A DNA stretch of 64,000 nucleotides from an uncultured bacterium (GTDB taxonomy: Bacteria; Poribacteria; WGA-4E; WGA-3G): assembly GCA_964523645.1 (NCBI GenBank), contig CAZGAW010000004.1:8284-72283 (forward strand), given 5' to 3'. Positions 1,514 through 60,307 of the stretch are shown here, piece by piece; position 1 is the stretch's first letter; each line of letters starts with the position of its first letter. A model generated the notes under the pieces. It worked only from the letters and a program-made list of their open reading frames with translations, was not told the origin of the DNA and ran no database searches. The position numbers were made by a program, and so were the translations under genes.

Positions 1514-2464
1514 ATGAAATACGATAGCGTTTTATTGGTTGCATTCGGTGGACCAACACCCGGTTGCTGCCAAAAATACAACGGCGATGCGTGTCCCGGT
1601 GAAGCCTACTGTTTTGTGGAGGGGATTGCTGGGAGTGCTGAATCTCAAAAAGAACGCGTAAAAGACATCTCAGCTCACTACGTGAAATTGGGCGGATTTT
1701 CGCCATTCAACGAACTCACTTTCAAACAAGCCGATGCATTAAAAACCGCACTGCAAGCGCGCGATCTACTACTACCCGTTTACGCTGGATTCAGGCATTG
1801 GAATCCGTATTTAAAAGAAGTTATCGCGGAAATGGCGCAAAAAGGACACCGAAAAATACTCGGCATTATCATGGCACCACACCAATCCAAAGTCAGTTGG
1901 GAGTGGTACCAACAAACCGTAAAAAAAGGAATCGATGCAGTTGATGGTGAGAAACCGACTATTGATTATCTCGACCCGTGGTACACACACAAAGGTTACG
2001 TTGGTGCCATCGCCGAAATCATCGAAAACGCATGTGGGGACAAGTTAGCACGCGCCGAACTTGTTTTCACGGCACACGCAATTCCGCAATCAGCGGCGGA
2101 TACTTCACCCTATACACAACAATTTGGAAAGACTGGCGAGGCAGTCGCTAAACAAATCGGAAAGCCTCGGTTCGGTTTAGCATACCAGAGCGAGGTAGAA
2201 AATAGCCCTATCCCATGGACACAACCCGATATTAACGATTGGCTTAAAGCTCGAAAGGAAGAAGGCATTGATACTGTTGTCACTTCACCAATCGGCTTTC
2301 TTTGTGACCACGTTGAAGTGCTCTACGATTTGGATATAGAAGCGGCAGAAACAGCCGAAACGTGCGGTATCGACTTTATTCGAGCAGGCACGGTCGGTGC
2401 CCATCCGAAATTTATCAATATGTTAGCAGATTTTGTGTCTGAGGCAGCTGCGAGAAAAGAATAA
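1514..2464 (+). CDS. hemH: ferrochelatase (Firmicute/CpfC-like type)
   Basis: Aligns along its length with B. subtilis HemH by recall: VLLVAFGGPT, FTAHAIPQ (SAHSLP motif), IGFLCDHVEVLYDLDIE and PKFINMLADFV. It has an unusual N-terminal Cys-rich insert, GCCQKYNGDACPGEAYC. Confidence 0.85.
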   Translation: MKYDSVLLVAFGGPTPGCCQKYNGDACPGEAYCFVEGIAGSAESQKERVKDISAHYVKLGGFSPFNELTFKQADALKTALQARDLLLPVYAGFRHWNPYLKEVIAEMAQKGHRKILGIIMAPHQSKVSWEWYQQTVKKGIDAVDGEKPTIDYLDPWYTHKGYVGAIAEIIENACGDKLARAELVFTAHAIPQSAADTSPYTQQFGKTGEAVAKQIGKPRFGLAYQSEVENSPIPWTQPDINDWLKARKEEGIDTVVTSPIGFLCDHVEVLYDLDIEAAETAETCGIDFIRAGTVGAHPKFINMLADFVSEAAARKE

Positions 2465-2694
2465 ATTAGAATTTACGTACTTCGTTGGTAGGTGCGGTTT
2501 CATGAAGATTAACTTTACTAATTCGGTAATTTCTTATCCGCACAAAGCAAAACTACCCCTGCTGCTGGCGAGGTGTTTTTGCTGGAGTGTTTCCCTCCTA
2601 ATCTCGTCACATTACCGAGTTATTTTTTTACTTCATCTAACCGCACTGAGCCGATGTCTGTAGGGTATGTCTTGTGCCTGCCCTCCCAAAAATT

Positions 2695-4113
2695 ATGTCG
2701 GAGAACTCGGTGAAAAAACATGCCATCGTTATCGGAGGAGGTATCACGGGTTTAGCGGCGTGCTACCGCTTACAGCGTGAGGCAGCCGCGCGTGGTATTC
2801 CCCTTGATATTACACTCCTTGAGGCAAGTGACCGTGTCGGTGGTGTTATTCAAACCGAACATCGCGATGGGTTTCTCATTGAACACGGTCCCGATGCATT
2901 TATTTCCACTAAACCAGCGGCAAAGGCGTTGTGCGAAGAACTGGATATCGCAGATCAATTCATTGGAACCAACCCAAAGGTCCGTCGGAGTTTTGTAATC
3001 CGAAACGGGGCGTTGTATCCTGTCCCTGAAGGGTTTTATATGATGGCGCCAGGATCGCTCGTGCCGTTTTTAAAGACACCGCTCTTCAGCTGGCGCGGCA
3101 AACTGCGAATGGCAATGGACCTTTTTATTCCGCGCAGGGAAAGAGATACAGATGAGGCTGTAGCACACTTCGTCAGGCGCCGTCTTGGTACTGAAGCGTT
3201 CACACGGATGGCACAACCTATGATTGGAGGTATCTATACCTCGGATGCCGAAAATTTGAGCCTAAAGTCGACATTCCCCAGATTCTTGGAAATGGAAAAA
3301 GCGCATGGAAGTATTATCAAGGCACTCCGAGCACAGAAAAAGCAAGCCGCTCAAACCAGTCGAGACACAAGCGGAGCACGTTATAGCCTTTTTCTTTCAT
3401 TTAAATCCGGAATGCAGACCCTAATCAATACGCTTATCGAAGCATTCTCTGGCAATATCAGATTAGGTGCCAGAGTAGAACGTATTCAGCAAGCGAGCGA
3501 TAGCAGCCTGTGGCGCGTTTCACTTGCTAATGGAGAAACCCTAAGTTCAGAACTTCTCTGCCTGGCACTTCCAGCCCTACAAACAAGCACACTCATTGAA
3601 GGTGTATCAAGTCCTCTTGCTACAAAACTCGACACGATTCCCTACACCTCCTCGGCAACAGTCAATTTAGCATTCCACCGAACAAATGTCACACACCCCT
3701 TAGACGGCATGGGATTTGTTGTACCTGCTACAGAAAATCTGTCTCTTATTGGGTGTTCCTTCAGTAGTGTTAAATTTGAAGACCGCGCCCCAACTGATTA
3801 TGTCTTATTGCGTGCCTTCGTTGGTGAACCCACGTCGAAAAAAAACGAAGCGGAACTCATTGAATTGTGTCAAGCAGATTTAAAGCCACTTCTCGGACTC
3901 AGAAATGTTCCACGATTTGCCATCGTTAGCAAGCATTCCCAAGCAATGGCACAATATCAGGTAGGACACCAAGAAGTTGTTGAGGGTATAGAACAGTTTA
4001 CAAACGAATTGCGGGGACTTGCACTTGCAGGAAATGGTTACCACGGGATTGGTATTCCAGACTGTATTCGGAGCGGCGAAGCGGCGGCACTTTCCCTTTT
4101 AAATCAACTATGA
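2695..4113 (+). CDS. hemY: protoporphyrinogen/coproporphyrinogen III oxidase, HemY/CgoX family (FAD-dependent)
   Basis: N-terminal FAD Rossmann motif HAIVIGGGITGLAA and overall HemY-like length. The alternative GTG start at 2674 is in frame. The stop overlaps the start of the next gene. Confidence 0.75.
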   Translation: MSENSVKKHAIVIGGGITGLAACYRLQREAAARGIPLDITLLEASDRVGGVIQTEHRDGFLIEHGPDAFISTKPAAKALCEELDIADQFIGTNPKVRRSFVIRNGALYPVPEGFYMMAPGSLVPFLKTPLFSWRGKLRMAMDLFIPRRERDTDEAVAHFVRRRLGTEAFTRMAQPMIGGIYTSDAENLSLKSTFPRFLEMEKAHGSIIKALRAQKKQAAQTSRDTSGARYSLFLSFKSGMQTLINTLIEAFSGNIRLGARVERIQQASDSSLWRVSLANGETLSSELLCLALPALQTSTLIEGVSSPLATKLDTIPYTSSATVNLAFHRTNVTHPLDGMGFVVPATENLSLIGCSFSSVKFEDRAPTDYVLLRAFVGEPTSKKNEAELIELCQADLKPLLGLRNVPRFAIVSKHSQAMAQYQVGHQEVVEGIEQFTNELRGLALAGNGYHGIGIPDCIRSGEAAALSLLNQL

Positions 4114-4121
4114 GGAACGTG

Positions 4122-5141
4122 ATGAATCTTACGATAACGCGTCGAAGTATCGCTGTCGCAAGTTTGGGACTATTTGGATGCCTGTTAGTGATATTACTCG
4201 GAAACCTCGTGTCTCGTGCTGAAAACGCCACAGCTCCCGTGGCAGAAGCATATCAGGGTTTTCAGGAAGGGAAGTGTAAAAGCTGTCACCCCGCAATCTG
4301 GAGGGAATGGGAAAATTCAATGCATGCGAAGGCATGGGTTGACGAAATCTATCAAGAAGTTGCAAATCAAATTGAAGATAGAGAAACAAAATGTGACGGA
4401 TGTCATGCTCCTCAACCGATCCTCATCACAGGTATTGGAGAAATTCCAGAACTGAGAAACGAACAGCGGGAAGCAGGTGTTTCGTGTCTTGTCTGTCACC
4501 TTGATGCTGAGGGGGCGATGCACGGACCGCCAGCAAGTGCAGAAACCTATTTTCACGCTAACGTAACCAATGCCATTTATACTTCACCAACAACGCTCTG
4601 TGGCACCTGCCATGGTCAACCGACCGTACCTGAACATGACCAAGTTTCCAGTTTTCTGAATAGCAAATTCGCTGAGGAAAATAAGAGTTGTACAACGTGT
4701 CACATGCCAGTTGTGAACCGACTACAAAGCACAGCCAGTTACGAAAGCACTAAAGGTAGGAAACATACGTGGCGCGGTAGCCGGAGTGTTGCACAACTTA
4801 GGCGCGCTGCCACGCTTCAATTTGAAATCGCCTCCGAAAAACTGAATCTAGGAATCCAAAGTAAGACAGGGCACATCTTGCCGGGTGGGACCTTGCGTAC
4901 TATCGTTCTTGAAGTGAAATTTCTCTCTCCAGATGGTACCGAGCGGCAGAAAGATCGAACTTCAATTTCATCTGGAAATCAAAATAGGCTTCTCCCTAAC
5001 GAGCACAGAACTTACGTTTTTGACGCTTCGTCCAGAGCGACTGGCGACACAATCAAAGTTCGGTTGATGTACCAACTAACACCGAAAACACCAGAATCCG
5101 AGTGGGTATTGATGGCAGAAAAAACCCACCTCGTCCCTTAA
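4122..5141 (+). CDS. secreted pentaheme c-type cytochrome
   Basis: AGGAA RBS before ATG at 4122. A signal-peptide-like N-terminus is followed by five CxxCH heme-binding motifs: CKSCH, CDGCH, CLVCH, CGTCH and CTTCH. Confidence 0.75.
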   Translation: MNLTITRRSIAVASLGLFGCLLVILLGNLVSRAENATAPVAEAYQGFQEGKCKSCHPAIWREWENSMHAKAWVDEIYQEVANQIEDRETKCDGCHAPQPILITGIGEIPELRNEQREAGVSCLVCHLDAEGAMHGPPASAETYFHANVTNAIYTSPTTLCGTCHGQPTVPEHDQVSSFLNSKFAEENKSCTTCHMPVVNRLQSTASYESTKGRKHTWRGSRSVAQLRRAATLQFEIASEKLNLGIQSKTGHILPGGTLRTIVLEVKFLSPDGTERQKDRTSISSGNQNRLLPNEHRTYVFDASSRATGDTIKVRLMYQLTPKTPESEWVLMAEKTHLVP

Positions 5142-5145
5142 AGTG

Positions 5146-5892
5146 CTAATCATTCATATTCGGCAACGAATCAAAGCCCAGTAACCGTTTTAAGGTCGGT
5201 GTTGCACGTGAGATTACTTCGTCCGAGACCAATTCAAGATGTGCCTGCTGCGGTTTCAGCATAGAACGACAGAAAAAACCGAGTAACCCAACACGCGGTA
5301 CATTCGTTCTATTTTCTGAAGAACCGTGCCATATCGCACCGTTGACAATTAAAACAGAACCTCGCGGCCCACAGATCTGTAGTTCGTCGGCATATGCTAC
5401 ACCTGATTCAGGCAGGGCTTCAAGCCGTCGATGGCTCCCCGGTACACAACTGGTTGCTCCATTTTCAAGCGTCCAGTCGTCTAAAAACCACACGCTGTTG
5501 GCAACCATCGGAAAACTGGGTCGCGGTGTTGGTAGCCCAGATAATGGATAATCAATATGGAGGCCGGCATCAGGTGCACCTGGGTAAAGAACATTTACGG
5601 TGAAAGAACTCAGTGTGCAATCAGCACCGAGCAAATATTCCATCGTAGCGAGCATCTTTGGCTCCTGAATAGCTTCTTCAAACGGCTTGCCTTTGTCAAC
5701 AAGATTCCAGACGCGTTGGGCAGTGTCATTCGTAAGATATGTATGGCTTTTGCCGGTTTTCTGTTCCGCTGCAGCGAGTGCCAAAGCGCACTCTCGGAGC
5801 CGCGTCGTTGTATCTGGAGGTATAAGACCTTCCAGCAGCAAAAAACCGTGCTGATCTAATTGTTGCTTTTCAAGTTCAGTCAAGATAGCCAT
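5146..5892 (-). CDS. phytanoyl-CoA dioxygenase (PhyH) family Fe(II)/2OG oxygenase
   Basis: GGAGAAA RBS. Length is PhyH-like, with a double-stranded beta-helix His/Asp signature and similarity to the other PhyH paralogs in this window. Confidence 0.6.
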   Translation of the reverse strand: MAILTELEKQQLDQHGFLLLEGLIPPDTTTRLRECALALAAAEQKTGKSHTYLTNDTAQRVWNLVDKGKPFEEAIQEPKMLATMEYLLGADCTLSSFTVNVLYPGAPDAGLHIDYPLSGLPTPRPSFPMVANSVWFLDDWTLENGATSCVPGSHRRLEALPESGVAYADELQICGPRGSVLIVNGAIWHGSSENRTNVPRVGLLGFFCRSMLKPQQAHLELVSDEVISRATPTLKRLLGFDSLPNMND

Positions 5893-6485: not shown

Positions 6486-9400
6486 ATGAAAAAACGAACA
6501 CTCGTTTGTTTTTTGATTTTTACATTGTGTGTTCTTTACACTTCAACCCCGAATACTGTTTTCGGGCAAGAAGCTTCTCTTGCACAACAGGTAGCCGCAA
6601 AATACAGCGAGACGCTTCAACGTGAGGATATTCAAGCAGTCCTACCAGCGGTTCTGGAAGGACTCAAAGACCCAGAAATTCAACCCCTTCTGAACCCCGC
6701 GACTATTGGTCTCGTCGTTGACAATCCGGATCTCCTAACGCAATTCGTTCCAGATATAGATCCCCAATTCGTAACCCTTCTGAAAGAGGACGCTGAACTT
6801 CAAGCACTGCTCAGCGATCCATTGGTGCATGCATTGCTCCAAGATCCGGCGGCGATTGATGAGCTTGCAGCGTTATTGAATGTTGGCGCAGAACCTCCAG
6901 TCGTTGAACCACCCGTCGTTGTTGGACCTCCGGTTGTTGTTGAGCCACCTGTGGTTGTTGAACCTCCGGTTGTTGTTGAGCCACCCGTTGTTGAACCGCC
7001 ACGAATGGAAGCTCCATCGCCAGAACCATTTGAGTTGCTTGAAATGCCTCGTGGCGAAGCACTTCTCGGTGGTATTTCCCTAAATACAGCTTCTGGAAGG
7101 CGATTTGTGGAGCAGATAGTCGCTGCATTAGGGCTGCCAGCTTCTCAAGCAGATGCTTTCGTGGATGCAATCCTTGAACAAGTGCCAAGAGGCTTTCTCC
7201 CTAAAAAGCAGATTCGGCAGATTTTAACCTCAAGCCACCAATCTGTTGCTTTTGCACATGAAGCAAGCCAATTAGATGCTGATAACTTCGGAAATGCTAT
7301 AACGCCGAATTTCGCGGATTTCACCTACTTAGAGCAGAGCAGCAAACACCTCACCAGCGATAGCATGCACGTTTATACCCGTGTTCCATCAGCAAATGTT
7401 GGCGGTGTTGTATTTAACCTTACAGACGGTAGAACTTTTGAGGGTATGGAGATTACGTCAGAAAGCATGATCCCATATACCTTTCGATTGGAAGAAACAC
7501 TCGCTGCTACAAACCTACCCGCATGGCCCAGTTTAGATACCCAATTGTTCGATAGTGTTGTTCTCCATTATTCAAACACCGGTCCCAACGGAAATTACAG
7601 TCCTGCTGACATGCAGAGAAATGGGGACACTTGGGAAGTAGAAGTCCCTATCCAGACAGGTAGCAGTACCTATTACTACTTTGAAGTTACACTCACTGAA
7701 CCCGTGGAATTCATGACGTTGAGTCGCGAGAAACTCGCCGAGATATTTCAGGACCCGCACACTATGTCTCTGGCAGCGATCTTAGACGCAACCACGGTAC
7801 TTGATGTTACGAGTTGGGCAATGCCTGACCCGCGTAACCTTCAGTTAGCGGATCGCGGTATTATCGACGCGTTGTTCGATGCTGATGTACAAGCTGCATT
7901 TCTAAGTGTGTTTGGTTCACCTCAGGCAGCTGCCCTAAGAGCAAAAGTGCTAAGTGGCCAGCAGGTTACCTTAAATGAAGTTCTGGGGATCATTTCACCA
8001 AAACAACAGCGTACACTTCAGAACCTGTTGCTCCGGAACACGAATCGACTGACGCAGAAATTTGAAGAATCATTTGATCCGATGCTGGCTTCTGTCTTTA
8101 CGCTGCCAAAAATTAGCCCCGGAACATCGTTCTGGTTTAAACGCATTGACCATATTGCTGATGGGCCCAATCAACAATTAGAGGCTTTAGTACTCGATGC
8201 TGACGGAGTACCAGTAGATCAGATTATTGAAACCTTCACCGTTGACACCAAGGCACCGGAAGCAAGCATTCACATTACACCCGGTGATGCAAATACTGCT
8301 GGCTACTCGAATAACGAAGGTATCTACGTTGCCACCGCCCATCACCCGGGTAACGTAATACTCAATGTTACAGGCGAGCCGAAACATGCTTATGCAGGTC
8401 AAGGTGTAGGTCCAGGCGAAGGATATTTGCTCTATCAGGAAATCGGACTTGATGCCCATGGCGTGCCACACACTAATTGGATGCCACTGACAATTGAGTC
8501 TACCATGTTGTCCTCCAGGATTTGGATTTCCGTCCTTGAACGAAATGAAGACCAGATTATCTCTCTCCTGAAGCAAAACTTTCCACAACTTGTTGGTGGA
8601 CTTGATGATGCGTCAATACTGAGTCTCGCAAAGACTACCAGTCCCGAGGCAGTTTTGGCACTAATTTCGCCAGGAACTATTCAAACTTCCGCTAATTCAT
8701 TTTTCAAAAGTTTAGGGTTAAGGAACTTCAACTTAACCGATGCCCAAGCGGCAACGATACATCAAGCCTTAGGCGGCTCGATAAAAATTCTTGATGAACT
8801 CGTACCGGTTACCTTTGACGCACCACACACTGTGAAGATGGTTGTCCCGCAAGGGGTTTATGGCGACTATGGTGTTCGGGCAATGGGAATCGATATGCTC
8901 TTTAACGTCGGTGCCTACGCTGAACCGACTCGCGTCAGAATCGTCATGCCAGAGAAAGATAAAGCGAGCATTACAGCTGCCAGTATCGGCGACCGAAACG
9001 GCGATGGTGATGCTGATGAACCCTATGAAAGTGGAACTATCTTCTCCAATACTACAGATGGCGTGATGCTAACGGTCAATCTTGATCACCGCTCACCACA
9101 TCCTGCATCCATCCATGTAGAATATATGGACGCAAATGGAGCATGGCAACCCGTCGGTGAAGCACAGATGTTCGCTGAAGGCGAAGGTGAAACAGGATCA
9201 ACCTTTGAAGTGAGTTGGGATGTCACTGATTTTGATGCGTTAGCGAGCGCAGGTGATTCCGTCATGGTACGCGCCGTGGCAATGAACTACCTCCAACTGA
9301 CACACGTGTCCGAACCGTTCTCAATAAAATTGGATGATGATGTTCACCCGGTTGACCTTGAGGTGTTAGCACTCGTTCTTGACCCTGAATCGATTACGGA

Positions 9401-12119
9401 AACGAATCCAGATAGTGGTGGACCACAAGGCACGGTCGTTGTTAATGCATATACGCCACAACGGACCCACCCCGGGATTGGCTCCATCCAATTGGTAATC
9501 GGTGAGGAAGTTGTTGGCACAGGTGATACAGGCGTTCTCGCTACCGCTGAAGAAATCGCAGCGTTACAAGAGAATACCGACTTCATTACCGACCTTGTTG
9601 CAGTTGCAGCGCAATCAACAGCCGCAGGTGGACTCACAGGAAAACCGATCGCTTACCCAACCTACCTGAAATGGGCGGTTGAGATAGATACTACGGCTCT
9701 CGAAGACACCATCACGGCAGAGAGTGATGCAGCACGCGATGCTTCCAAAGATGACAGTCAGCACATGGTAACTGCAATCGCAATCACCAGCAGTGCTGAG
9801 GAAGTACCGGGACAGCCGGGTGCCAAGACATATCTATCGGTTGACAACGTTGACGATGTCGCACCGTTAGGTCCCACAAACATTGTCGCTGTGGCAGATG
9901 TCGCTGGAATGATTGAAGCAGACGCAGATGGCAACTACACAGTCGGTGGAATCGTTGATGAAACAGTTGAATCACCGATAGCAATTTATACCGTTGAACC
10001 GACTGCTGATCCAAGCACGTATGCCTCGGTTAAGATAGTTCGAGTAGATGCCGACGGCAACGAGATCGACCCGATTGACGGTGAAGTCGGTGCTTTGGAC
10101 CTTACGGATGATGTCGGAATGCTTGAAAATGGAGTTTACATGCTTCACGCTCTAGCAGTTGACGAAGCCGGTAATGTCCAAACCGATGAATCGCCACAAA
10201 CCGCGGTGCATGTGCTGAACTTCCGAGTCACTGATGTTACAAGGCTCGTCGTTACAGCCGTTGACGGTGTGGATGTGCCGAGAACACCACCTGAACCGAT
10301 TCCACTTCGGAGTTCACTTACTGTAGGCTTTGATGTTGACAACGGTTCGTTAGATGCAGAAGAACTCAGCGGTTCTGTTCCTGGAAATGAAGTATCAAGC
10401 GAAAGTGAAGAAAATCCAGAAAATTCCTTCTCATTGAAGGTAGATGTTTCAGGGTTAGCCGATGGTGTTTACACACCAGAAGCCGTTGTTACCAAACGTA
10501 ACGGTTCGGTTAGCTTCCCATTGAAAACCATCAATCTGGATAACACCGGTCCGATGGTTGAAATTCAAACACCTTCGGAAGATGACTCTGTAGATAGTTT
10601 ACCAACCTTCCACGCAACCTATCACGATGGTGAAGGTAGTGGTGTTAACGGTGCAAGCGGAAGCCTCGCTCTCGCACGCCTCCATCCACCCGACGAAGTT
10701 TCAGTAGATGTTGACCAGAATTCTCTTGAAAAAGATGAAGAAGTATTGGTCTACACCCGCACTGAGGAACTTCCAGGTGGGGCATATCGAGTCACTGTGC
10801 AAGTTGCCGATATTCTCGGAAACGTCGGTGAAGGTTCTGCTGAGTTCGCTATCAATGGAACGCCCGCAGACACAACACCGCCAGTCATCACTGAGGCGGC
10901 TCCATCAGGGGTCATTAAGGGTGAAAGTTGGGTAACGCTCTCAGCAGTTGTCAACGACGCGGAATCTAAGGTTATAAGTGTAAAGTTCGGTATAAACGAC
11001 AAACCGTTCCGCTCGATCGCACCGGCACAAATCGCTGAAGGGCGAGTTCAGACAGCTGAAAGTTTCACGGCAGGTACGCACACCATCAAACTCATTGCCG
11101 TCAGTGAAGGTGGTACACGGGAACACACGTGGACCTTCACGTTGGAAGTCGATAACGTCGCACCGACGATCACCTCGATCACGCCAACAGGTACTATCCG
11201 TGCTGGACTCCCGGTAATTTCGGCGAGTGCCAACGATGAATCAGGCGTTGACGAAATGGACATCGCCCTGATGGATAGCGATGGCGAAGAGGTGGAAGGT
11301 GCCACAGAAGATGATGGCGAAGATGATGTGGCAGGTATCACCCGCTTGGATTTCATTCCTGAAGCACCTCTTGGTGAGGGAACTTACACGATTGAAGTCC
11401 GTGCAACGGATACGATCGGCAACTCTGCGACAGCGAAAGGTAGTTTCACAATCGACTTCGATACTGCCGCTCCGGTTATCACGATGTCGTCGCCCCAGAA
11501 TGAGGCTCGTTTGACTGAACGCCGACCGCAGATTTCGATAACCTATGCCGATGCTGAATCCGGTATAGATACTGATTCTATCCGCTTCGTTCTTGATGAC
11601 CAGCTGATTAACCTCGCACCGAATCAGAAGTCGGCATCGCAAGTGGTATATACCCCACCTGCCGAACTCGCTTTCGGGCAACATACGGTTAAACTCGAAG
11701 TATCTGACATGGCGCATAAAGAGGGGAACGTCTCTGAGAAGAGTGCTGGTGCCCGTAAGGCGAACATGGCAGTCCATGAGTTTACATTCTTTGTTGAGAG
11801 TGAGGAAGGCCCAGTATTGGCATCGCGTCCGATTAACGCTCCCAATCCGTTCAAGGATAATACGCGTATCTCCTTCACATTGACTCGACAGTCTACAGTC
11901 AGTATCATTATTTATGATATGACACTCCGACCGGTTCGAGTTCTTGTGGATAACGAGGTTTGGGATGCAGGCGAGTACGTTGGCAAAGGTGCTATCGGTT
12001 GGGATGGAACGTCCACCGCTGGCGAAGACTTAGCTCGAGGCGTTTACTTCTGTCAGATTATGGTCGCAGACGGTTTCGAGCCAGAATATGCCATTCTTAA
12101 ACTCGCACTGACGCGCTAA
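6486..12119 (+). CDS. giant secreted surface protein with Pro-Val repeats, Ig/cadherin-like beta domains and a T9SS-type C-terminal sorting domain
   Basis: Strong GGAGG RBS before ATG at 6486 and a signal peptide MKKRTLVCFLIFTLCVLYTSTPNTVFGQ. A PPVVVE repeat tract follows. The C-terminal ~95 aa match the Por_Secre_tail pattern (NAPNPF, ISFTL, IIIYD, WDGT, GVYFCQI, KLALTR). Confidence 0.75.
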   Translation: MKKRTLVCFLIFTLCVLYTSTPNTVFGQEASLAQQVAAKYSETLQREDIQAVLPAVLEGLKDPEIQPLLNPATIGLVVDNPDLLTQFVPDIDPQFVTLLKEDAELQALLSDPLVHALLQDPAAIDELAALLNVGAEPPVVEPPVVVGPPVVVEPPVVVEPPVVVEPPVVEPPRMEAPSPEPFELLEMPRGEALLGGISLNTASGRRFVEQIVAALGLPASQADAFVDAILEQVPRGFLPKKQIRQILTSSHQSVAFAHEASQLDADNFGNAITPNFADFTYLEQSSKHLTSDSMHVYTRVPSANVGGVVFNLTDGRTFEGMEITSESMIPYTFRLEETLAATNLPAWPSLDTQLFDSVVLHYSNTGPNGNYSPADMQRNGDTWEVEVPIQTGSSTYYYFEVTLTEPVEFMTLSREKLAEIFQDPHTMSLAAILDATTVLDVTSWAMPDPRNLQLADRGIIDALFDADVQAAFLSVFGSPQAAALRAKVLSGQQVTLNEVLGIISPKQQRTLQNLLLRNTNRLTQKFEESFDPMLASVFTLPKISPGTSFWFKRIDHIADGPNQQLEALVLDADGVPVDQIIETFTVDTKAPEASIHITPGDANTAGYSNNEGIYVATAHHPGNVILNVTGEPKHAYAGQGVGPGEGYLLYQEIGLDAHGVPHTNWMPLTIESTMLSSRIWISVLERNEDQIISLLKQNFPQLVGGLDDASILSLAKTTSPEAVLALISPGTIQTSANSFFKSLGLRNFNLTDAQAATIHQALGGSIKILDELVPVTFDAPHTVKMVVPQGVYGDYGVRAMGIDMLFNVGAYAEPTRVRIVMPEKDKASITAASIGDRNGDGDADEPYESGTIFSNTTDGVMLTVNLDHRSPHPASIHVEYMDANGAWQPVGEAQMFAEGEGETGSTFEVSWDVTDFDALASAGDSVMVRAVAMNYLQLTHVSEPFSIKLDDDVHPVDLEVLALVLDPESITETNPDSGGPQGTVVVNAYTPQRTHPGIGSIQLVIGEEVVGTGDTGVLATAEEIAALQENTDFITDLVAVAAQSTAAGGLTGKPIAYPTYLKWAVEIDTTALEDTITAESDAARDASKDDSQHMVTAIAITSSAEEVPGQPGAKTYLSVDNVDDVAPLGPTNIVAVADVAGMIEADADGNYTVGGIVDETVESPIAIYTVEPTADPSTYASVKIVRVDADGNEIDPIDGEVGALDLTDDVGMLENGVYMLHALAVDEAGNVQTDESPQTAVHVLNFRVTDVTRLVVTAVDGVDVPRTPPEPIPLRSSLTVGFDVDNGSLDAEELSGSVPGNEVSSESEENPENSFSLKVDVSGLADGVYTPEAVVTKRNGSVSFPLKTINLDNTGPMVEIQTPSEDDSVDSLPTFHATYHDGEGSGVNGASGSLALARLHPPDEVSVDVDQNSLEKDEEVLVYTRTEELPGGAYRVTVQVADILGNVGEGSAEFAINGTPADTTPPVITEAAPSGVIKGESWVTLSAVVNDAESKVISVKFGINDKPFRSIAPAQIAEGRVQTAESFTAGTHTIKLIAVSEGGTREHTWTFTLEVDNVAPTITSITPTGTIRAGLPVISASANDESGVDEMDIALMDSDGEEVEGATEDDGEDDVAGITRLDFIPEAPLGEGTYTIEVRATDTIGNSATAKGSFTIDFDTAAPVITMSSPQNEARLTERRPQISITYADAESGIDTDSIRFVLDDQLINLAPNQKSASQVVYTPPAELAFGQHTVKLEVSDMAHKEGNVSEKSAGARKANMAVHEFTFFVESEEGPVLASRPINAPNPFKDNTRISFTLTRQSTVSIIIYDMTLRPVRVLVDNEVWDAGEYVGKGAIGWDGTSTAGEDLARGVYFCQIMVADGFEPEYAILKLALTR
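6901..7005 (+). repeat. 15-bp coding tandem repeat encoding (E/G)PPVVV x6
   Basis: Direct tandem repeats gaaccacccgtcgtt/gttggacctccggtt, in frame inside the giant gene. Confidence 0.6.
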
Positions 12120-53749: not shown

Positions 53750-54007
53750 TTAATAGACCTTACTACGGTGCCCGATTTGGTGAACGCTCACCACCCGAAT
53801 GCGCCTGTTAAAGGAATAAACGATTCGGTAATCTTTAGCAACTGTTAAGCTGAATTTACCCCTGAATTTGCCTTTTAGTGCCTTGTGTGGGTAATTATCA
53901 CAATTTTCGCATAACCGTTCCAGTTTTTCAAGGATCCGCGCCCTGACAGTGGGATGAAAACGCTGCATATCCCGTTGTGCCCGCGAGTCTAATGCTAACG
54001 TGTACAC
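53750..54007 (-). CDS. type II toxin-antitoxin system RelE/ParE family toxin
   Basis: 85 aa, with YRIVYSF...RVVSVHQIGHRSKVY typical of RelE/ParE. Its 5' end overlaps the upstream antitoxin gene by 13 nt. Confidence 0.7.
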   Translation of the reverse strand: MYTLALDSRAQRDMQRFHPTVRARILEKLERLCENCDNYPHKALKGKFRGKFSLTVAKDYRIVYSFNRRIRVVSVHQIGHRSKVY

Positions 54008-54720
54008 TTCAACTTCACCCCGAACTCTCTGGCCACCTCTTCAAGTGTAACCATTTCCGCTTCTCCAGCTTCGTGATCGGCTATACGTTTTTCCAACTCT
54101 TCGGCAAACTCTGGGCGGAACTCCAACCCTGCGTCCGGATCGTAGTGGTAGTCCTCAAAGGCGACTTCCAAAAGTTCATAGGCGACGTAAAGTTCTCGAA
54201 ATGCCAGATCCAGCACCTGATCTGTCGGATGCTGCTCAAGCAACGCGACGAGCCGCTCACGCACTGGGAAGAGTTCTTGGGCGACGAGGAAACGAAGCAG
54301 GTTTCGGTATTCATCCGGTGGTAACTCAGCAATTTTCTTCTCTGGCATCGGATCGCTGTTGAGGTAAAGCCCCATTCGTCTGAAGTTACGCTCTTTGAGC
54401 GTTGTTTTCCGGTTGGCGAGGACATATTCGCGTTGCCGTTTTAGTTTTTTCGCGAGCGGCGTGTCCGGTCTGAGTCCTTCAAGCGGGTCTTCCTCGTAGC
54501 TCTCCAACCAAAAAGCGAAATCCACGTAGTCACCGTGAAAATGAAAGAACTCCGCCTCTAATTCCTCTTGCGGACTATCCTTAGCAAGTAGTGCAGCAAG
54601 CCGTTCCCGCGATTTGAAAAGCTCCTCGTTAATAAGGGTATGGAGCAACTCCCGGAATTCAGTAGGATTCATCTCCTTAATATTCGGCATAATGTTCTCC
54701 GTGTGCGTTAGAATTTTCAA
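53995..54720 (-). CDS. elongated antitoxin-like protein (addiction-module-component family C-terminus) with duplicated N-terminal module
   Basis: C-terminus EFAEELEKRIADHEAGEAEMVTLEEVAREFGV resembles TIGR02574-type antitoxins. Two internal repeats are PTEFRELLHTLINEELFKSRERLAALLAKD and PDEYRNLLRFLVAQELFPVRERLVALLEQH. Confidence 0.5.
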   Translation of the reverse strand: MKILTHTENIMPNIKEMNPTEFRELLHTLINEELFKSRERLAALLAKDSPQEELEAEFFHFHGDYVDFAFWLESYEEDPLEGLRPDTPLAKKLKRQREYVLANRKTTLKERNFRRMGLYLNSDPMPEKKIAELPPDEYRNLLRFLVAQELFPVRERLVALLEQHPTDQVLDLAFRELYVAYELLEVAFEDYHYDPDAGLEFRPEFAEELEKRIADHEAGEAEMVTLEEVAREFGVKLKCTR

Positions 54721-55013
54721 TGTTTAGTATACCGCAAAATCCGTTTGATGTCTAATGCATCTTGACTCGGATGCGTAAAGTTTTTGGCTAAGCATTCTGT
54801 TTCTCGGGTAGGAGAGGTTTCTAACCACGATTGCTCTCGGAAACTCTACACGTATGAGACACGCCGTTGACAGGCGGTTGCCCATAATCAGCGATAATCC
54901 GCGTTCAGATAACAAAACATTTATACACCCCTTGACCTCTCAACATACGTTATGCTATAATAACCTTTACAATATAAACGCGAAAATCTGAATATATCCA
55001 GAGAAGAAAGCGT

Positions 55014-56288
55014 ATGAACATACCAAATCCATCCGATCTCGACAAGGTTTTAGAAAAGATCACCGAGATAGCGCAAGAATCCGCCACTGGCGACTACATC
55101 TACCGGGGTGAGCCTGAGTATTACGACAAAGTCTCCTCAAATCTCTATCGCGAGTTCCCTGAATTTGAAGAGATTCGCTTTGATATCGCACGTGTTCAAG
55201 AAAATATTCTGAAAGAGGCGAAAGCGTATATCAGCAAAACAGACGATATTGACGAAACAGATAGCATTGAAATCTTAACCGAGCTCCAACACTTTGGCGG
55301 TAAAACCAACCTGATTGATTTTACGGAAGACTATCTTATTGCGCTATTCTTCGCTTGCGACGGTTCACATAAAAACCCCGGGCGGGTTATCTTGCTGAAA
55401 AGAAAATCAGGGTCAGAGGTCTACAAAGTCAGAAAACCTCGTCGGATAATCAGTCGCGTTGAATCCCAAAAGAGTGTATTCGTTGAATCACCCGAGGGTT
55501 CTGTGAAACCTGACATTGAGGTTACCATTCCAGCAGACCTCAAATTTCCTATGTTAGAGTACCTGCGGAAACACCACAGAATATCTATTGGAACCATCTA
55601 CAACGATCTCCATGGATTTATCAGACGGAGTGCCTACACGGAGTTTTTTAAAGGCATGACTTGTCAACAGGCAGCAAGTGAATCGGAAACTCCTCAGAAA
55701 AAACGCAAGTATTGCGAAAAGGCGATTGAACATTATAGCGAAGCTTTGGAACTGAGACCTGATTTTGCCGAAGTTTATTTCCATCGGGGCAGTGCTTATG
55801 AAGACCAACGAGAAAGCGATTTGGCTGTTGAAGACTATAGCAAGGCGATAGAAATGAATCCCAATTTTGCCTTTGCCTATCGCAATAGAGGTCTGATTTA
55901 TGAGAAAAAAGGTGAGGTCGACCTAGCCATTAAGGATTACAGCAAGGCAATTGAACTCAATTTAGATTCTTCCCTTGACTATTCCCATCGCGGCCGTGCT
56001 TACAAGAAAAAAGGCGAGACTAATCTAGCCATAGAAGACTATAGAAAGGCAATAGACCTGAACCCATATAACGTCAGCAATTACCACGACCTCGTCATAA
56101 TTTGGCTACATCAGGGAGATTGGGAAAATATCGAATCATACCTAACTATTGCCCAAAATAACGGGTTAAACATCATCAATCTTTTTTCTCAATATTACCC
56201 AACCATTATAGACCTTAAAAAAGAAATCGCGGTTGAAGTTCCGGAAGACCTCGCTGCAAAACTATATCCAGTGAATCCACAATCCTAA
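55014..56288 (+). CDS. FRG-domain protein with C-terminal TPR repeats
   Basis: The N-terminal ~200 aa match the FRG-domain pattern (IYRGEPEYY...ELQHFGGKTNLIDFTEDYLIALFFAC). The C-terminal half carries 4-5 TPRs (AYRNRGLIYEKKGEVDLAIKDYSKAIELN). Confidence 0.5.
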   Translation: MNIPNPSDLDKVLEKITEIAQESATGDYIYRGEPEYYDKVSSNLYREFPEFEEIRFDIARVQENILKEAKAYISKTDDIDETDSIEILTELQHFGGKTNLIDFTEDYLIALFFACDGSHKNPGRVILLKRKSGSEVYKVRKPRRIISRVESQKSVFVESPEGSVKPDIEVTIPADLKFPMLEYLRKHHRISIGTIYNDLHGFIRRSAYTEFFKGMTCQQAASESETPQKKRKYCEKAIEHYSEALELRPDFAEVYFHRGSAYEDQRESDLAVEDYSKAIEMNPNFAFAYRNRGLIYEKKGEVDLAIKDYSKAIELNLDSSLDYSHRGRAYKKKGETNLAIEDYRKAIDLNPYNVSNYHDLVIIWLHQGDWENIESYLTIAQNNGLNIINLFSQYYPTIIDLKKEIAVEVPEDLAAKLYPVNPQS

Positions 56289-56303
56289 AAGGACAATCCA
56301 AGC

Positions 56304-59174
56304 ATGCCTAACCAAGATTACACCAAATGGCATTTGCCCAAAGGTGCCAAGGCGCGCCTTGGAAAAGGCTATATCAACGAGATAGCGTATTCTCCAGACA
56401 GCAGTCGTCTGGCGGTGGCGAGTTCCATCGGAATTTGGATCTACGATGCGGACACCTGTGAAGAATTTGCTTTGTTCACAGGACATACAGATAATGTTGA
56501 AAGTCTTACCTATTCTCCGGATGGCAAAATAATCGCTACCGGAGGCAGGAACGTTTGTTTGTGGGACGCTGCCACAGGTGAACATAAAGCCACGCTGCCG
56601 GGACATGTTGATAGGGTTGACAGTGTTGTGTATAGTCCGGATGGCAAAACAATCGCTGCCAAGATGGGACGTTCCACTTCCATCACAAGAAGTTTTGATT
56701 ACTCAGTGTATTTGTGGGACGTTACCACCGGAAAATACAAAACTACGCTCACAAGACCTCTCCACAGGATCTATAGTCTGGCGTATAGTCCAGATGGTAA
56801 AACAATCGCCACCGGTACTTACCAAGAGTTGCATTTATGGGACGCTGTTACTGGTGAACACGAAACTACACTCACAGGACATACCGGTAGCGTTGAAAGC
56901 ATTGCGTATAGTCCGGATGGCAAAATAATCGCCACCAGCAGCGGGATTTTTGGTGGAGATGTATATTTATGGGATGCTACCACCGGAAAACATAAAACTA
57001 CGCTTACGGAACGTGGCGATAGTGTTGAGTATAGTCCAGATGGTAAAACAATCGCTATTGCCAGTCTGTTCACAATAAGTTTATGGGATGCTATTACTGC
57101 GGAACACAGAGGCACATTCACAAGTCCTACTGATAGTATTAAAAGTGTTGCGTATAGCCCCGATGGAAAAACAATCGCTATGGGAACTTATGAGGAGGTG
57201 AACTTATGGGATGCTGATACCGGGAAACACAAAACCACACTTACAGATCATGCCAAAAGTGTCAAGAATGTTGTGTATAGTCCGGGTGGAAAAGTAATCG
57301 CCACCGATTGCTATGATCTGAATTTGTCCGAGAGAGTACATTTATGGGATGTTATTACAAGGAAACACAAGACCACGCAGAATAAAGTTGCGTATAGTCC
57401 GGATGGAAAAACAATTGCTACCTCGGGTTTTGAAAAAGGAAGAAATCGAAAGGTGTGCTTATGGGATACTATCACTTGGGAACACAAAACCATGCTTACA
57501 GAACACGCCGACAGAATCTCAAGTATTGTATATAGTCCAGATGGAAAAACAATCACTATCCGGAGTGAGGATCTAGAGGATGACCTTTTCTTGGGGGCTC
57601 ATCCTATAGAACATAAAGTGCGTTTGTGGGATACTACCACTGGTGAATACATAGCCACGCTTAGCGAGTATACCAATGACATCGAGGATTTTATGTATAG
57701 TCCGGATGGAAAAACAATCGCTATCTGGAGTTGGACAAAAGAAAAAAATCAAGAGGTGCGTTTGTGGAATGCCGTTACCGGGCAACAAATAGCTACGCTT
57801 ACAAGGTATACTGATCGCGTAGAAGAGGTTGCGTATAGTCCAGATAGCAAAACGATTGCTACCAGGAGCAATGAAGAGGTGTGTTTGTGGGATACCATCA
57901 CAGGGAAACACAAAGCTACACTCGGAGGACACACCGATAGTATTAATAACTTTGTACATAGTCCGGATGGAAAAACAATCGCCACTTGGAGTCATGAAAA
58001 GGTGTGCTTGTGGAATGCGGTCACCGGGGAACATATGTGGGATATCACTACAGAGGAATATGACTTCAGATTTACCGGAGAAGAGGGCCTTGCATATAGC
58101 CCAAATGGTTGTGTGATCGTCACTTGGGGCTATGGAAAGGTATGTTTATGGGATACCATCACAGGGAAACAAATAGTCACACTTACGGAACATATCAATA
58201 TTTGGGATACCATTGAGAATGTCGCTTATAGTCCAGATAGTCATACTATCGCCATCAGCTGCCATAGTGGGTCCCGTGGATCCTATGACAGTAAGGTCCA
58301 TTTGTGGGATACTACTATATGGAAACACAAAGCTACGCTTATAGGAAGTAGTTGTGCGTATAGTCCAAATGGAAAAACAATCACCACCAGTAGTGATAAG
58401 GGGGTGCATTTGTGGGATGCTACCACTGGAAATCACAAAATCACATTTATCGGGCATATCGGCGATGTCTACAGTTTTGCATATAGTCCGGATGGAAAAA
58501 CAATCGTCACTGGTGGGAACGAAGACAGCACAGTTCTCCTATGGGAAACTGAATCTTTTCTTCATCAGGGGCCGAATATCAATCCGTGCGAAATTCACGG
58601 AAATTGGCGAGCAGGTTGGGCTTTGGATGTTCATACATTATCAAGTCGCCCTTTGCCGGGTGGAGGATACGATACAGAACGAACCGAATTTGGCGAATTG
58701 GTTTTTCAGTTGAAATATCGTCATGATAGGAGTAAGATTCAACCTATCGCAGAGATTGCCGCCAAATTCGTTAAAGAAAAATTTGCCGTTGATGGATACC
58801 CCATTCTTCCATATCTGAAGGCGATTCTTCCGATTCCGCCCTCAGACACAAATAGGGCTTTCCAACCTGTTACCGAAGTCGTACGGGAAATAGGTAAACT
58901 CCTGAATGTACCAGTCCGAACGGACTATCTAATGAAGGTAAAACGGACGGAACTTCTCAAGAATCTGCCAGACGTAGAAAACAAACGTGAACAACTCCAT
59001 GGAGCATTTGCTGTCCAATCCCAAGATTTGAAGAACCGCTGTGTCTTGTTAGTTGACGACCTCTATGACTCAGGGACAACTTTGACAGAAGCCACCAAAG
59101 TTCTCTATGAACAAGGCGGTGTACAACACGTGCTTATTCTAACGTTAACCCGCACTCGGACAGGCAGAGATTGA
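56304..59174 (+). CDS. WD40-repeat array (~18 repeats) fused to C-terminal ComF/GntX-type phosphoribosyltransferase domain
   Basis: AAAGGA RBS. Repeats of the form GH...V.SVAYSPDGKTIAT...V.LWD..TG.HK.TL run across aa 30-750. The C-terminal ~170 aa align with ComFC (LKYRHDRSKIQPIAEIAA, ILPIPPS, KNLPDVENKREQLHGAF, VLLVDDLYDSGTTLTEATKVL). Confidence 0.7.
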   Translation: MPNQDYTKWHLPKGAKARLGKGYINEIAYSPDSSRLAVASSIGIWIYDADTCEEFALFTGHTDNVESLTYSPDGKIIATGGRNVCLWDAATGEHKATLPGHVDRVDSVVYSPDGKTIAAKMGRSTSITRSFDYSVYLWDVTTGKYKTTLTRPLHRIYSLAYSPDGKTIATGTYQELHLWDAVTGEHETTLTGHTGSVESIAYSPDGKIIATSSGIFGGDVYLWDATTGKHKTTLTERGDSVEYSPDGKTIAIASLFTISLWDAITAEHRGTFTSPTDSIKSVAYSPDGKTIAMGTYEEVNLWDADTGKHKTTLTDHAKSVKNVVYSPGGKVIATDCYDLNLSERVHLWDVITRKHKTTQNKVAYSPDGKTIATSGFEKGRNRKVCLWDTITWEHKTMLTEHADRISSIVYSPDGKTITIRSEDLEDDLFLGAHPIEHKVRLWDTTTGEYIATLSEYTNDIEDFMYSPDGKTIAIWSWTKEKNQEVRLWNAVTGQQIATLTRYTDRVEEVAYSPDSKTIATRSNEEVCLWDTITGKHKATLGGHTDSINNFVHSPDGKTIATWSHEKVCLWNAVTGEHMWDITTEEYDFRFTGEEGLAYSPNGCVIVTWGYGKVCLWDTITGKQIVTLTEHINIWDTIENVAYSPDSHTIAISCHSGSRGSYDSKVHLWDTTIWKHKATLIGSSCAYSPNGKTITTSSDKGVHLWDATTGNHKITFIGHIGDVYSFAYSPDGKTIVTGGNEDSTVLLWETESFLHQGPNINPCEIHGNWRAGWALDVHTLSSRPLPGGGYDTERTEFGELVFQLKYRHDRSKIQPIAEIAAKFVKEKFAVDGYPILPYLKAILPIPPSDTNRAFQPVTEVVREIGKLLNVPVRTDYLMKVKRTELLKNLPDVENKREQLHGAFAVQSQDLKNRCVLLVDDLYDSGTTLTEATKVLYEQGGVQHVLILTLTRTRTGRD
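56400..58550 (+). repeat. near-identical ~120-130-bp coding tandem repeats (WD40 units)
   Basis: The string gcgtatagtccggatgg(c/a)aaaacaatcgc recurs more than 15 times inside the gene. Confidence 0.6.
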
Positions 59175-59223
59175 AATTGGGAATTTTGGAGCTATCAATG
59201 CCCACTCAAACAAGGAAGAAAAG

Positions 59224-60207
59224 ATGAGAATTAACAGAGACTATTTCTGGTTCCGGCTCTTTAAAACGCGAGGTATAGGGCCCAAGCTGCTGATTTCCAT
59301 TGCCGAGATACTTGAAATGGAAAATCTTGATCCTGAAATGGTACCACGTAGCCAAAGTGATCTCTCAGCACAATTTCCAGAATTAGCCAAAATCCTCAAT
59401 GGCAAAATTCGTACAGAGGATAGGGAAAAGGTGTCTGAAGCATATAGCGAGCTCAAAAGACATGGAGTTGATATTATCTATCCAAGGCATCCCGATTTTC
59501 CGTCACAACTCCTTGAAATTTCGCCGATGCTATTTGTTAAAGGTCAACAGAAACGTCTTATATCAGATAGCGTTGCAATTGTTGGCGCGCGGAACGTTTC
59601 AGATAAAGGGATCCGCATTGCACGAAAACTTGCAGGTGATCTTGCAAGCGAAGGCATAAATGTCGTCTCTGGATACGCTAAAGGGGTTGACTCAGAAGCA
59701 CACTTAGGTGCATTAGCGGCAGAAGGCACAACAACACTTGTGCTTCCGTACGGCATCAAGCAGCTGCGTCAGAAAAAAGCGTTTAAGGAATTTAATTGGG
59801 ATCGGGATGTGCTTGCGGTTTCACAATTCGACCCAGATGCGAAATGGTTAGCACGCAACGCAATGGCACGGAATAAACTTGTATGCGGTCTTTCTAAAGC
59901 AGTTGTCGTTATTGAGTCAGGACCTGAGCGGGACGCACGAGGTAAAATGAGTGGAACCTTTAATGCCGCAAAAACGGCTCTTGACATGAACTTACCGCTT
60001 TTTGTTCTCAATCCAAACTGCCTTGACAATCCACAGGAAGGTAATACTGCCCTGATTGCCTTGGGCGGTCATAGTCTTGATCCAGCTGATGGTGCAAACG
60101 AGATTGTAGACCATATCTCTGTTAAAACCACGGCGTCTGTTCTAACTGCAAATCAGAATTCCCCTGAACAATTGTCCCTTCGTTTTGAGGATTCCATGGA
60201 CTCCTGA
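59224..60207 (+). CDS. dprA: DprA/Smf family (SLOG Rossmann) DNA-processing protein
   Basis: AAGGAAG RBS. N-terminal HhH-like WFRLFKTRGIGPKLL and DprA core GVDIIYPRHPDFPSQLL...VAIVGARNVSDKGIRIARKLAGDLASEGINVVSGYAKGVDSEAHLGAL. Confidence 0.7.
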   Translation: MRINRDYFWFRLFKTRGIGPKLLISIAEILEMENLDPEMVPRSQSDLSAQFPELAKILNGKIRTEDREKVSEAYSELKRHGVDIIYPRHPDFPSQLLEISPMLFVKGQQKRLISDSVAIVGARNVSDKGIRIARKLAGDLASEGINVVSGYAKGVDSEAHLGALAAEGTTTLVLPYGIKQLRQKKAFKEFNWDRDVLAVSQFDPDAKWLARNAMARNKLVCGLSKAVVVIESGPERDARGKMSGTFNAAKTALDMNLPLFVLNPNCLDNPQEGNTALIALGGHSLDPADGANEIVDHISVKTTASVLTANQNSPEQLSLRFEDSMDS

Positions 60208-60260
60208 TTGAGGTCTTCTATCGCTGTAGAGCACCCTGGAATTTACGGAGACGTATCGTT

Positions 60261-60282
60261 GGCGAGGTTCCAAACCTCGCCA
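60261..60282. terminator. hairpin GGCGAGGTT-ccaa-AACCTCGCC between the convergent dprA-like and glycoside-hydrolase genes
   Basis: Member of the GGCGAGGTT hairpin family. It has no clear U-tract on either side, so it may be REP-like rather than a terminator. Confidence 0.3.
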
Positions 60283-60307
60283 GCAATCGTATAGCGTGTA
60301 ATCCTCA

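Follow-up and report, generated by a model that had tools for sequence, protein, structure and literature searches.

PsyrTA and ShosTA have both been reported as defence systems composed of a phosphoribosyltransferase (PRTase) toxin and a DprA-like antitoxin. In the RqlH/RqlI pair (the same system as PsyrTA), the PRTase domain of the helicase–PRTase protein is genotoxic unless the DprA-like protein RqlI is present, and mutation of the pocket for phosphoribosyl pyrophosphate (PRPP), in which D663 is needed, abolishes toxicity; the RqlH PRTase domain alone is non-toxic, and the helicase domain helps to restrain the PRTase (PMC4670107). ShosT is a toxin with a PPase-like Rossmann domain (residues 1–164) and a PRTase; its toxicity requires PRPP binding (D331/D332, R285), and its acceptor is not known. 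ShosA binds single-stranded DNA (ssDNA) and RecA, not the toxin, and ShosTA, a type IV toxin–antitoxin (TA) system, defends against phages (PMC11961720, PMC12961424). ComFC carries four conserved cysteines (4-Cys zinc finger), which define the family and are essential for function, and it is reported to interact with DprA (PMC9005727). Here, we describe a locus of an uncultured Candidatus Poribacteria bacterium within a 64,000-nt stretch of DNA (the window), in which a PRTase domain is fused to a long WD40 array and followed by a DprA-like gene. Because of this DprA-like neighbour, the locus was placed in the PsyrTA/RqlHI–ShosTA class, and on balance we favour reading it, by analogy, as a Candidatus Poribacteria variant of these PRTase-toxin/DprA-like-antidote modules.

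Positions 56304–59174, pointed out in an earlier note on this DNA, corresponded exactly to one uninterrupted open reading frame (ORF) of 956 amino acids (aa) and a stop codon. A record with the exact protein sequence is present in NCBI. The protein consisted of a 27-aa leader, 17 WD40-like units, a short linker, and a C-terminal PRTase, in this order. The earlier note had missed the DprA-like gene, which starts 49 nt downstream.

56304..59174, plus strand: WD40-PRTase ORF, 956 aa; orthologues of 917–1103 aa align over 100% of the query
56304..56384, plus strand: N-terminal leader MPNQDYTKWHLPKGAKARLGKGYINEI, aa 1–27, kept in orthologues of 334 to 1103 aa
56385..58547, plus strand: array of 17 degenerate WD40 blades, aa 28–748 (Pfam, unit alignment, AlphaFold2 (AF2) model)
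58578..59171, plus strand: type-I PRTase domain, aa 759–956, with a hood-like N-terminal beta region (Pfam, PADLOC, AF2, Foldseek)
59043..59081, plus strand: PRPP-binding loop VLLVDDLYDSGTT, aa 914–926, with the acidic pair D918/D919 (motif)
59224..60207, plus strand: DprA-like (SLOG-fold) gene, 327 aa, putative antidote

The C-terminal 214 aa, scanned alone, matched Pribosyltran (PF00156) with 26.8 bits against a cut-off of 26.3 (3.6e-6). The domain opens with the family motif INPxEIHGNWRAGWALDxH, and solo homologues begin directly at INPxEIHGNW. Its AF2 model was confident (pLDDT 95.7) and matched PRTase folds at a probability of 1.0. Residues D918, D919, S923, G924, and T926 were nearly invariant among the orthologues, and D163/G168 were invariant across 66 family members; the D918/D919 region corresponds to ShosT D331/D332 and RqlH D663 by motif position only, unaligned. 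Among the PADLOC profiles, PsyrT was matched at 7.4e-17 (2.7e-18 for the domain alone; profile positions 538–686 of 689) and ShosT more weakly, at 5.4e-7. An HMMER search of 1.84 billion representatives yielded 5888 relatives, including 129 with E ≤ 1e-30, and the PRTase was C-terminal in every case; its N-terminal partners included RecQ helicase, MORN repeats, and unknown domains. RecQ–PRTase proteins were recovered with the window domain (P0368, 1.8e-30; P0383, 1.0e-29). Judged by sequence, the domain belongs to the same family as the C-terminal domain of RecQ-helicase–PRTase proteins with the PsyrT/RqlH architecture.

The earlier note had called this domain a ComF-type PRTase. The top solved Foldseek match was indeed Helicobacter pylori ComFC (7p0h, E 9.6e-7, TM 0.54), with generic PRTases next, and the domain shares with ComFC the hood-like beta strands and helix before the PRT core as well as the DD..TGTT-type PRPP loop. 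Searches of PDB by sequence and profile retrieved generic PRTases and PurF, with neither ShosT nor ComFC among the matches listed; the family profile matched the PRTase domain of PurF at 7.7e-6. The best NCBIfam matches were GntX/ComF, far below the cut-offs (TIGR00201, 34 vs 233.55 bits; NF008616 GntX, 34.9 vs 304). We failed to find the 4-Cys zinc finger of ComFC: C762 and C913 are the sole cysteines in aa 757–956. Unlike ComFC, the domain is also fused to a WD40 array. Since the scores are below the cut-offs and the zinc finger is missing, the domain is not a ComF by membership; the PRTase assignment and the likeness in fold stand, and “ComF-type” is fair for fold resemblance, not for family membership.

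The fusion of a WD40 array to this PRTase was borne out. Pfam WD40 (PF00400) matched at 9e-71 (231.8 bits vs a cut-off of 27), several propeller-domain models were also above cut-off, and the WD40/beta-propeller models of Pfam covered roughly aa 20–750. The 17 units were 39–55 aa long each and were anchored by the motifs [YH]SP[DNG][GSC] and LW[DNE]; the array consensus was AYSPDGKTIAT...V.LWDA.TG.HK.TLT, with B–C loops of varying length. Read by eye from the alignment, many units were without the canonical GH and the structural-tetrad Asp. In the AF2 model, residues 24–748 were all-beta, and the leader was modelled poorly (pLDDT <50 over residues 1–21); the full-length model was moderate (pLDDT 69.3, pTM 0.44), and the 17 blades could split 8+9 or otherwise. 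The best PDB match of the array was 2ymu, a 14-repeat double propeller of Nostoc (33% identity), and the tandem propellers of Apaf-1 also matched. The G+C content was 0.435–0.448 over positions 56001–60000, across the WD40-PRTase and DprA-like genes, with positive GC and AT skews; it was 0.505–0.518 in the adjoining downstream stretch and 0.45–0.52 in most of the window.

The DprA-like protein matched Pfam DNA_processg_A (5.4e-41, 140.5 bits) and the PADLOC profiles PsyrA (1.5e-47) and ShosA (5.9e-38). It was below the equivalog cut-offs for DprA (TIGR00732 dprA, 126.4 vs 191.15 bits; PRK10736, 103.8 vs 495), and in PDB it matched DprA 3uqz at 1.3e-16 vs 1.4e-9 for ShosA 9vzo. The matches listed in its homologue search were all orthologues with at least 72% identity, and some orthologues bear the NCBI label “DNA-processing protein DprA”. 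Every Poribacteria locus extending far enough 3′ (L001, L002, L005, and L007–L025 of our comparison) had a DprA-like gene after the PRTase gene. A second tandem DprA-like paralogue of 298–336 aa was common in relatives (e.g., L001, L002, L007, L010, and L012), being 70–75% identical to the first and equally PsyrA/ShosA-like; in loci with both paralogues, the spacing from the PRTase gene was 34–50 nt. Locus L011 contained the second paralogue only (9964–10860), overlapping the PRTase stop codon. The window keeps only the first, which is followed by 100 nt (60208–60307) and then by a convergent DUF5060-like gene.

Thus, the locus shares with PsyrTA/RqlHI the C-terminal PRTase family, the acidic residues of the PRPP loop, and a co-oriented DprA-like gene directly downstream. 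It differs in the N-terminal part, which is a RecQ helicase in those systems and a 17-blade WD40 array here, or nothing in most Poribacteria relatives; furthermore, the window locus has a fixed, syntenic place on the chromosome within a single phylum. With ShosTA, it shares the pair of PRTase and DprA-like partner genes and the PRPP motif matching D331/D332; however, ShosT has a PPase-like N-terminus in place of an all-beta WD40 array, and its PRTase is only distantly related, being absent from the PDB sequence and profile matches listed and from the top 50 fold matches. The joining of a repeat array to an effector is shared with STAND/Apaf-1-type sensors, the array being N-terminal here. In contrast to repetitive prokaryotic WD40/STAND arrays, the repeats of the window protein are diverged, and no NTPase switch domain lies between array and effector. 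By analogy, an array placed before an effector in this way would point to a ligand-sensing role.

A search with the PRTase domain retrieved about 250 relatives, the best 120 of which were 62–91% identical and mostly stand-alone proteins of ~200 aa; such stand-alone homologues were 65–91% identical to the window domain. The whole-protein search retrieved full-length WD40-PRTase orthologues of 917–1103 aa with 100% query cover. A scan of species-representative genomes revealed 13 close loci, all in metagenome-assembled genomes (MAGs) of Candidatus Poribacteria, several of them chromosome-level, and 3 distant loci from Desulfobacteraceae, Pseudomonadota, and Burkholderiales. Several Poribacteria loci had the gene order of the window, namely Amidohydro_2, ParE/antitoxin (variable), FRG-TPR (variable), PRTase, one or more DprA-like genes, and DUF5060/apiosidase-like.

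The earlier note had anticipated length variation of the array, and a comparison of copy number among related genomes revealed it: syntenic orthologues had 0 to ~19 WD40 units between the same N- and C-termini. The full-length form (956 aa in the window) was present in L010 (965 aa), L011 (988), L012 (1096), L014 (1043), L015 (1061), and L025 (1030); long forms were located on large sequences, namely a 6.71-Mb contig (L012), a 4.2-Mb contig (L025), and a chromosome-level record (L014). The solo form of ~200 aa was present in L001, L005, L013, L016, L018, and L019. Proteins with an intact leader and C-terminus were 334, 554, 662, 680, 780, and 930–1103 aa long. In the shortest (P0099, 334 aa; L007 3197–4201), the window leader and ~4–5 WD40 units were left, and its PRTase had an in-frame deletion of ~46 aa between FQPV and VRSQDL, which probably inactivated it as a putative toxin. 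The PRTase frame of L023 was broken after 68 aa. In L009, WD40 remnants abut a truncated FRG gene (7466–7804), and the L017 ORF starts inside the last blade. In L020 and L021 (chromosome-level MAGs), the PRTase ORF opens with MPKKESRRVKTL / MPEKESRRVKTL, the FRG gene start seen in L009, joined directly to INPREIRGTWRAG of the PRTase domain; this junction implies a deletion that took the rest of FRG-TPR together with the entire WD40 array and left the ORF with a new in-frame start. Fused (21), remnant (5), and solo (94) forms were intermingled in a neighbour-joining tree of 120 PRTase domains. The interleaved tree and the distinct junctions therefore indicate many independent losses of the array.

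According to the earlier note, the array was encoded by near-identical DNA repeats with long identical stretches; this was not confirmed. Tandem Repeats Finder detected 0 arrays in the 54–61 kb region. The 29-mer quoted in that note had no exact copy; it had 8 matches at 1–3 mismatches vs 0 expected (100 shuffles). A 41-nt core was present in 15 copies with 73–85% identity to the reference copy, and whole-unit families were 60–80% identical to their reference copy. Over the unit pairs (136 of 136 codon-aligned), nucleotide identity averaged 58.7% (minimum 36.8%, maximum 73.9%) and amino-acid identity 43.8%. The longest exact repeat in the gene was 27 nt, in two copies only (56783 and 57029), and the commonest 20-mer occurred 4 times. 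The DNA core coding for YSPDGKTIA recurs far above chance, and the eye-catching similarity is codon-level conservation of this strand, not recent duplication. The repeat is real at the level of protein and motif, yet old and diverged in DNA. Since no exact repeat exceeds 27 nt, an assembler would find little to collapse, and the array collapse suspected earlier is also at odds with the long versions on chromosome-scale contigs and records. A recurring motif of 20–27 nt alone is no evidence of recent repeat expansion or assembly risk.

The window protein and its orthologues were cut into units and compared. The closest full-length orthologue, P0121 (965 aa), was 75% identical and collinear over 955 of the 956 residues. 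The best match of window units 1–14 and 17 was the positional counterpart in P0121, with an identity of 54–87% for units 1–13 and 17 (unit 14, 43%); identity to the best paralogue within the window protein was only 40–66%. As the units resemble their positional orthologues more than their paralogues, no homogenisation has occurred since those genomes diverged. Neither the recent expansion nor the concerted evolution proposed in the earlier note agrees with these values, and concerted evolution was rejected by this test. In more distant orthologues, one-to-one unit orthology was kept at the terminal units only, indicating that the array interior turns over slowly.

The ratio of nonsynonymous to synonymous substitution rates (dN/dS) was computed between the window and L010, L011, or L012. 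It was 0.21–0.29 for the WD40 array, 0.14–0.23 for the PRTase, and 0.17–0.20 for the DprA-like gene; the flanking genes had 0.04 (Amidohydro_2) and 0.06 (antitoxin-like gene). Inside the array, dN/dS was 0.12–0.16 at repeat-consensus positions and 0.35–0.37 at other positions. Positive selection on the array was thus rejected, its dN/dS being 0.35–0.37 even at non-consensus positions, and the array gave no sign of pervasive diversifying selection by dN/dS. Judged by these ratios, the array, the PRTase, and the DprA-like gene are functional and under moderately relaxed purifying selection. Synonymous divergence (dS) between window positions 56304–59171 and L010 7001–9895 was uneven: the WD40 part had 0.79, and the PRTase part had 0.23 (DprA-like gene, 0.37). 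This could be a sign that the PRTase–DprA segment underwent recombination or gene conversion between lineages.

Homologues of the PRTase were also found outside Poribacteria. A tblastn search against plasmids retrieved 67 records with solo homologues annotated as “ComF family protein”, the best matches listed having 34–39% identity over >90% of the domain. In 3 of the 3 plasmid cases examined, a small partner gene directly followed the solo PRTase, overlapping it or lying at most ~15 nt away. The pair of Agrobacterium pAtl-11c was located among CBASS, ImmA/IrrE, and VapC genes, and its partner had a C-terminal helix-turn-helix “addiction module antidote” domain (1.6e-21); the pair of a Citrobacter plasmid adjoined repA, ParDE, and ParA/ParG, and that of Listeria pLI100 adjoined rep. 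These cassettes share with the window locus the PRTase, present in them as a solo homologue, and a partner gene directly downstream, and occur in addiction and defence contexts; they differ in that the partner is a minimal protein of 173–216 aa with a weak DprA link and that WD40 repeats are absent.

The small partners, including chromosomal ones in L026 and L028, formed one family (37–47% identity to that of L028) and weakly resembled the Rossmann region of DprA (Pfam, 1.4e-4 to 0.03; hhalign, E 1e-3, probability 20%). Members of this family (173–286 aa), with the motif GDAxGxD...RNNxGxW...KD..M...D.G.M.W, always followed a solo PRTase in distant phyla and plasmids, and no significant Pfam or PADLOC family was found for them.

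Small-partner genes: L026 6525–7175; L028 6569–7126; L029 4564–5424; L030 3815–4369; L031 4576–5097

The distant PRTase pair of L028 (Burkholderiales) has two genes beside it (1815–5745, minus strand), one for a NACHT-FGE-sulfatase STAND protein of 959 aa and one for a protein of 346 aa that weakly matches TIR_2/DUF4062; this neighbourhood resembles a defence island.

Upstream of the WD40-PRTase gene, the window contained the following features.

54932..54961, plus strand: sigma-70-like promoter match (TTGACC, 18-nt spacer, TGnTATAAT), 11/12, upstream of the FRG-TPR gene
55014..56288, plus strand: FRG + TPR protein, 424 aa (Pfam FRG, 4.4e-15, and TPR_1, 4.5e-33; PADLOC candidate system PDC-S15, 2.8e-18)
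53750–54007, minus strand: ParE-family toxin, 85 aa (PF05016, 2.7e-8)
53995–54720, minus strand: antitoxin-like gene, 241 aa, C-terminus weakly similar to Unstab_antitox (2e-4), upstream of the ParE gene with a 13-nt overlap

The FRG-TPR gene ends 15 nt before the WD40-PRTase start. We failed to find a terminator-like site on the plus strand between the FRG-TPR, WD40-PRTase, and DprA-like genes, and the match at 54932..54961 is a possible start of a putative three-gene transcript; it is a consensus match only, and 13 promoter-like matches were found in the region vs 10.8 expected. FRG-TPR was located upstream of the WD40-PRTase gene in L010, L011, L014, and L025 and was missing or decayed in others; it may be an accessory gene or a defence gene that merely lies nearby. 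The FRG-TPR proteins of the window and L010 (5627–6985) had 41% identity, with dS saturated at 2.1, and the flanking genes were 92–94% identical and the WD40-PRTase 75%; FRG-TPR may thus have been replaced by another allele or have evolved very fast. The 241-aa antitoxin-like protein contained two internal repeats of ~90 aa, as read by eye (EFRELLHTL.../EYRNLLRFL...). The ParE/antitoxin-like pair was kept in L007, and the antitoxin-like gene alone was called in L010 and L011. The same inter-gene site held variable cargo in other genomes: a type ISP restriction-modification enzyme (L001 1094–3268), a 732-aa VWA protein (L005 5666–7864), and a 775-aa LRR protein (L012 12342–14669). Such variety points to a hot spot of variation surrounding the conserved PRTase/DprA-like pair.

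If the locus is a module of the PsyrTA/ShosTA class, analogy with RqlH and ShosT predicts that its PRTase uses PRPP to disturb the metabolism of nucleotides or DNA and is genotoxic if unchecked. The DprA-like protein would offset the damage via ssDNA and RecA-linked repair without binding the toxin. The WD40 array would stand in place of the helicase domain of PsyrT or the PPase-like domain of ShosT and could serve as a protein-binding platform gating or targeting the PRTase, e.g., as the sensor of a protein of a phage or of the cell. Defence of the abortive-infection type, or addiction, would result. The idea of a sensor plus an effector, also raised in the earlier note, is plausible. We hold with little confidence its more specific form, namely that the array is an NTPase-less sensor acting in cis on a PRTase toxin, that binding of a phage protein, invader, or stress signal frees or retargets the PRTase, and that the DprA-like protein sets the damage threshold. 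In the library searched, no paper joined PRTase, WD40, and antitoxin, and among the papers retrieved on SLOG, PRTase, and DprA, none contained “WD40”.

The toxin–antidote reading has to be weighed against several findings that speak otherwise. The PADLOC matches to PsyrT and ShosT are confined to the PRTase portion of the profiles, ShosT was not among the top 50 Foldseek matches of the PRTase domain, the closest fold is that of ComFC, and the DprA-like protein is nearer by sequence to genuine DprA than to ShosA. Across the sampled Poribacteria, the pair is fixed at a single syntenic chromosomal site, as would suit a housekeeping function no less than a defence locus that has become fixed; a scan of viral contigs revealed no relatives of the PRTase pair. 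The array is dispensable in many lineages, which weakens the idea of an essential gate, and toxicity, neutralisation, and phage defence are, for the WD40-fused clade, what we infer from analogy only. The main rival is a housekeeping pair for DNA uptake or recombination, with the PRTase as a ComFC-type ssDNA handler, the neighbour as a real DprA, and the array as an accessory scaffold; ComFC and DprA are known to be physical partners in natural transformation. It draws on the best solved fold (ComFC 7p0h) and the best NCBIfam matches (GntX/ComF), on the typical DprA length and layout of the DprA-like protein, its best matches to DprA of S. pneumoniae and R. palustris and the NCBI name of some orthologues, on the same syntenic site in 13 of 13 Poribacteria species representatives, and on the reported ComFC–DprA interaction (PMC9005727). 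Against this, both proteins score well below the ComF (34 vs 233.55 bits) and dprA (126 vs 191) cut-offs, and the zinc finger of ComFC is missing. The dN/dS of ~0.2 exceeds the 0.04–0.06 of the flanking genes, structural decay is frequent (the PRTase deletion in L007, the interrupted gene in L023), and tandem DprA-like paralogues come and go among genomes. Moreover, RecQ–PRTase (PsyrT/RqlH) proteins belong to the same PRTase family, as do plasmid cassettes from addiction or defence regions; these cassettes, the antidote fusion in Agrobacterium, ParE and FRG-TPR in the window, and the restriction enzyme in L001 appear to support a TA/defence context of the family. We therefore regard the housekeeping explanation as rather unlikely.

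The PRTase/DprA-like module might also be self-sufficient, the array being a lineage-specific and largely dispensable add-on from a repeat-rich genome that shrinks by recombination and neither gates nor senses. Solo forms of ~200 aa make up 94 of the 120 sampled domains and are interleaved with the fused ones in the tree, several deletion scars are independent, and solo and fused PRTase domains are still 85–91% identical. However, purifying selection acts even at non-consensus positions of the array (0.35–0.37 vs 0.12–0.16 in the core), and the N-terminal domain of RqlH modulates PRTase toxicity (PMC4670107). In at least 7 species, the array keeps 14–19 units, and its leader and terminal blades are conserved. 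On these grounds, we strongly doubt this explanation. Poribacteria are sponge symbionts with genomes rich in WD40, TPR, and LRR proteins, and the neighbours of the locus include TPR and LRR proteins; with Candidatus Poribacteria as the source clade, a eukaryote-like repeat protein, whose array binds a sponge-host protein and delivers or anchors the PRTase, could be envisaged. This is very improbable, as no signal peptide was evident by eye in the conserved N-terminus, and the tight pairing with a cytoplasmic DprA-like ssDNA-binding protein and the TA-type relatives point to an intracellular role. Finally, the window comes from a 79-kb contig, and short variants such as P0099 originate from short-read metagenome scaffolds and could be collapsed, so that a collapsed or chimeric repeat block might have produced a false fusion. 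Yet the frame is open throughout with no exact repeat >27 nt, P0121 is collinear with the window protein over nearly its whole length, and versions of 1030–1096 aa lie on contigs or records of 4.2–6.7 Mb; an assembly chimera was rejected by synteny and by these chromosome-scale sequences, and we give an artefact almost no credence.

For the family of PRTase toxins, the N-terminal control domain is modular: it can be a helicase, a PPase-like domain, MORN repeats, a WD40 array, or nothing. The PRTase/DprA-like modules RqlHI/PsyrTA and ShosTA are validated anti-phage TA systems. In Poribacteria, one orthologous gene forms a natural deletion series, in which leader and PRTase stay the same and the blades number 0–19; this series bears on the function of the N-terminal domain. 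If the array does act as a sensor of a PRTase toxin, this series would record how an uncultured animal symbiont gained, retuned, and lost recognition specificity.

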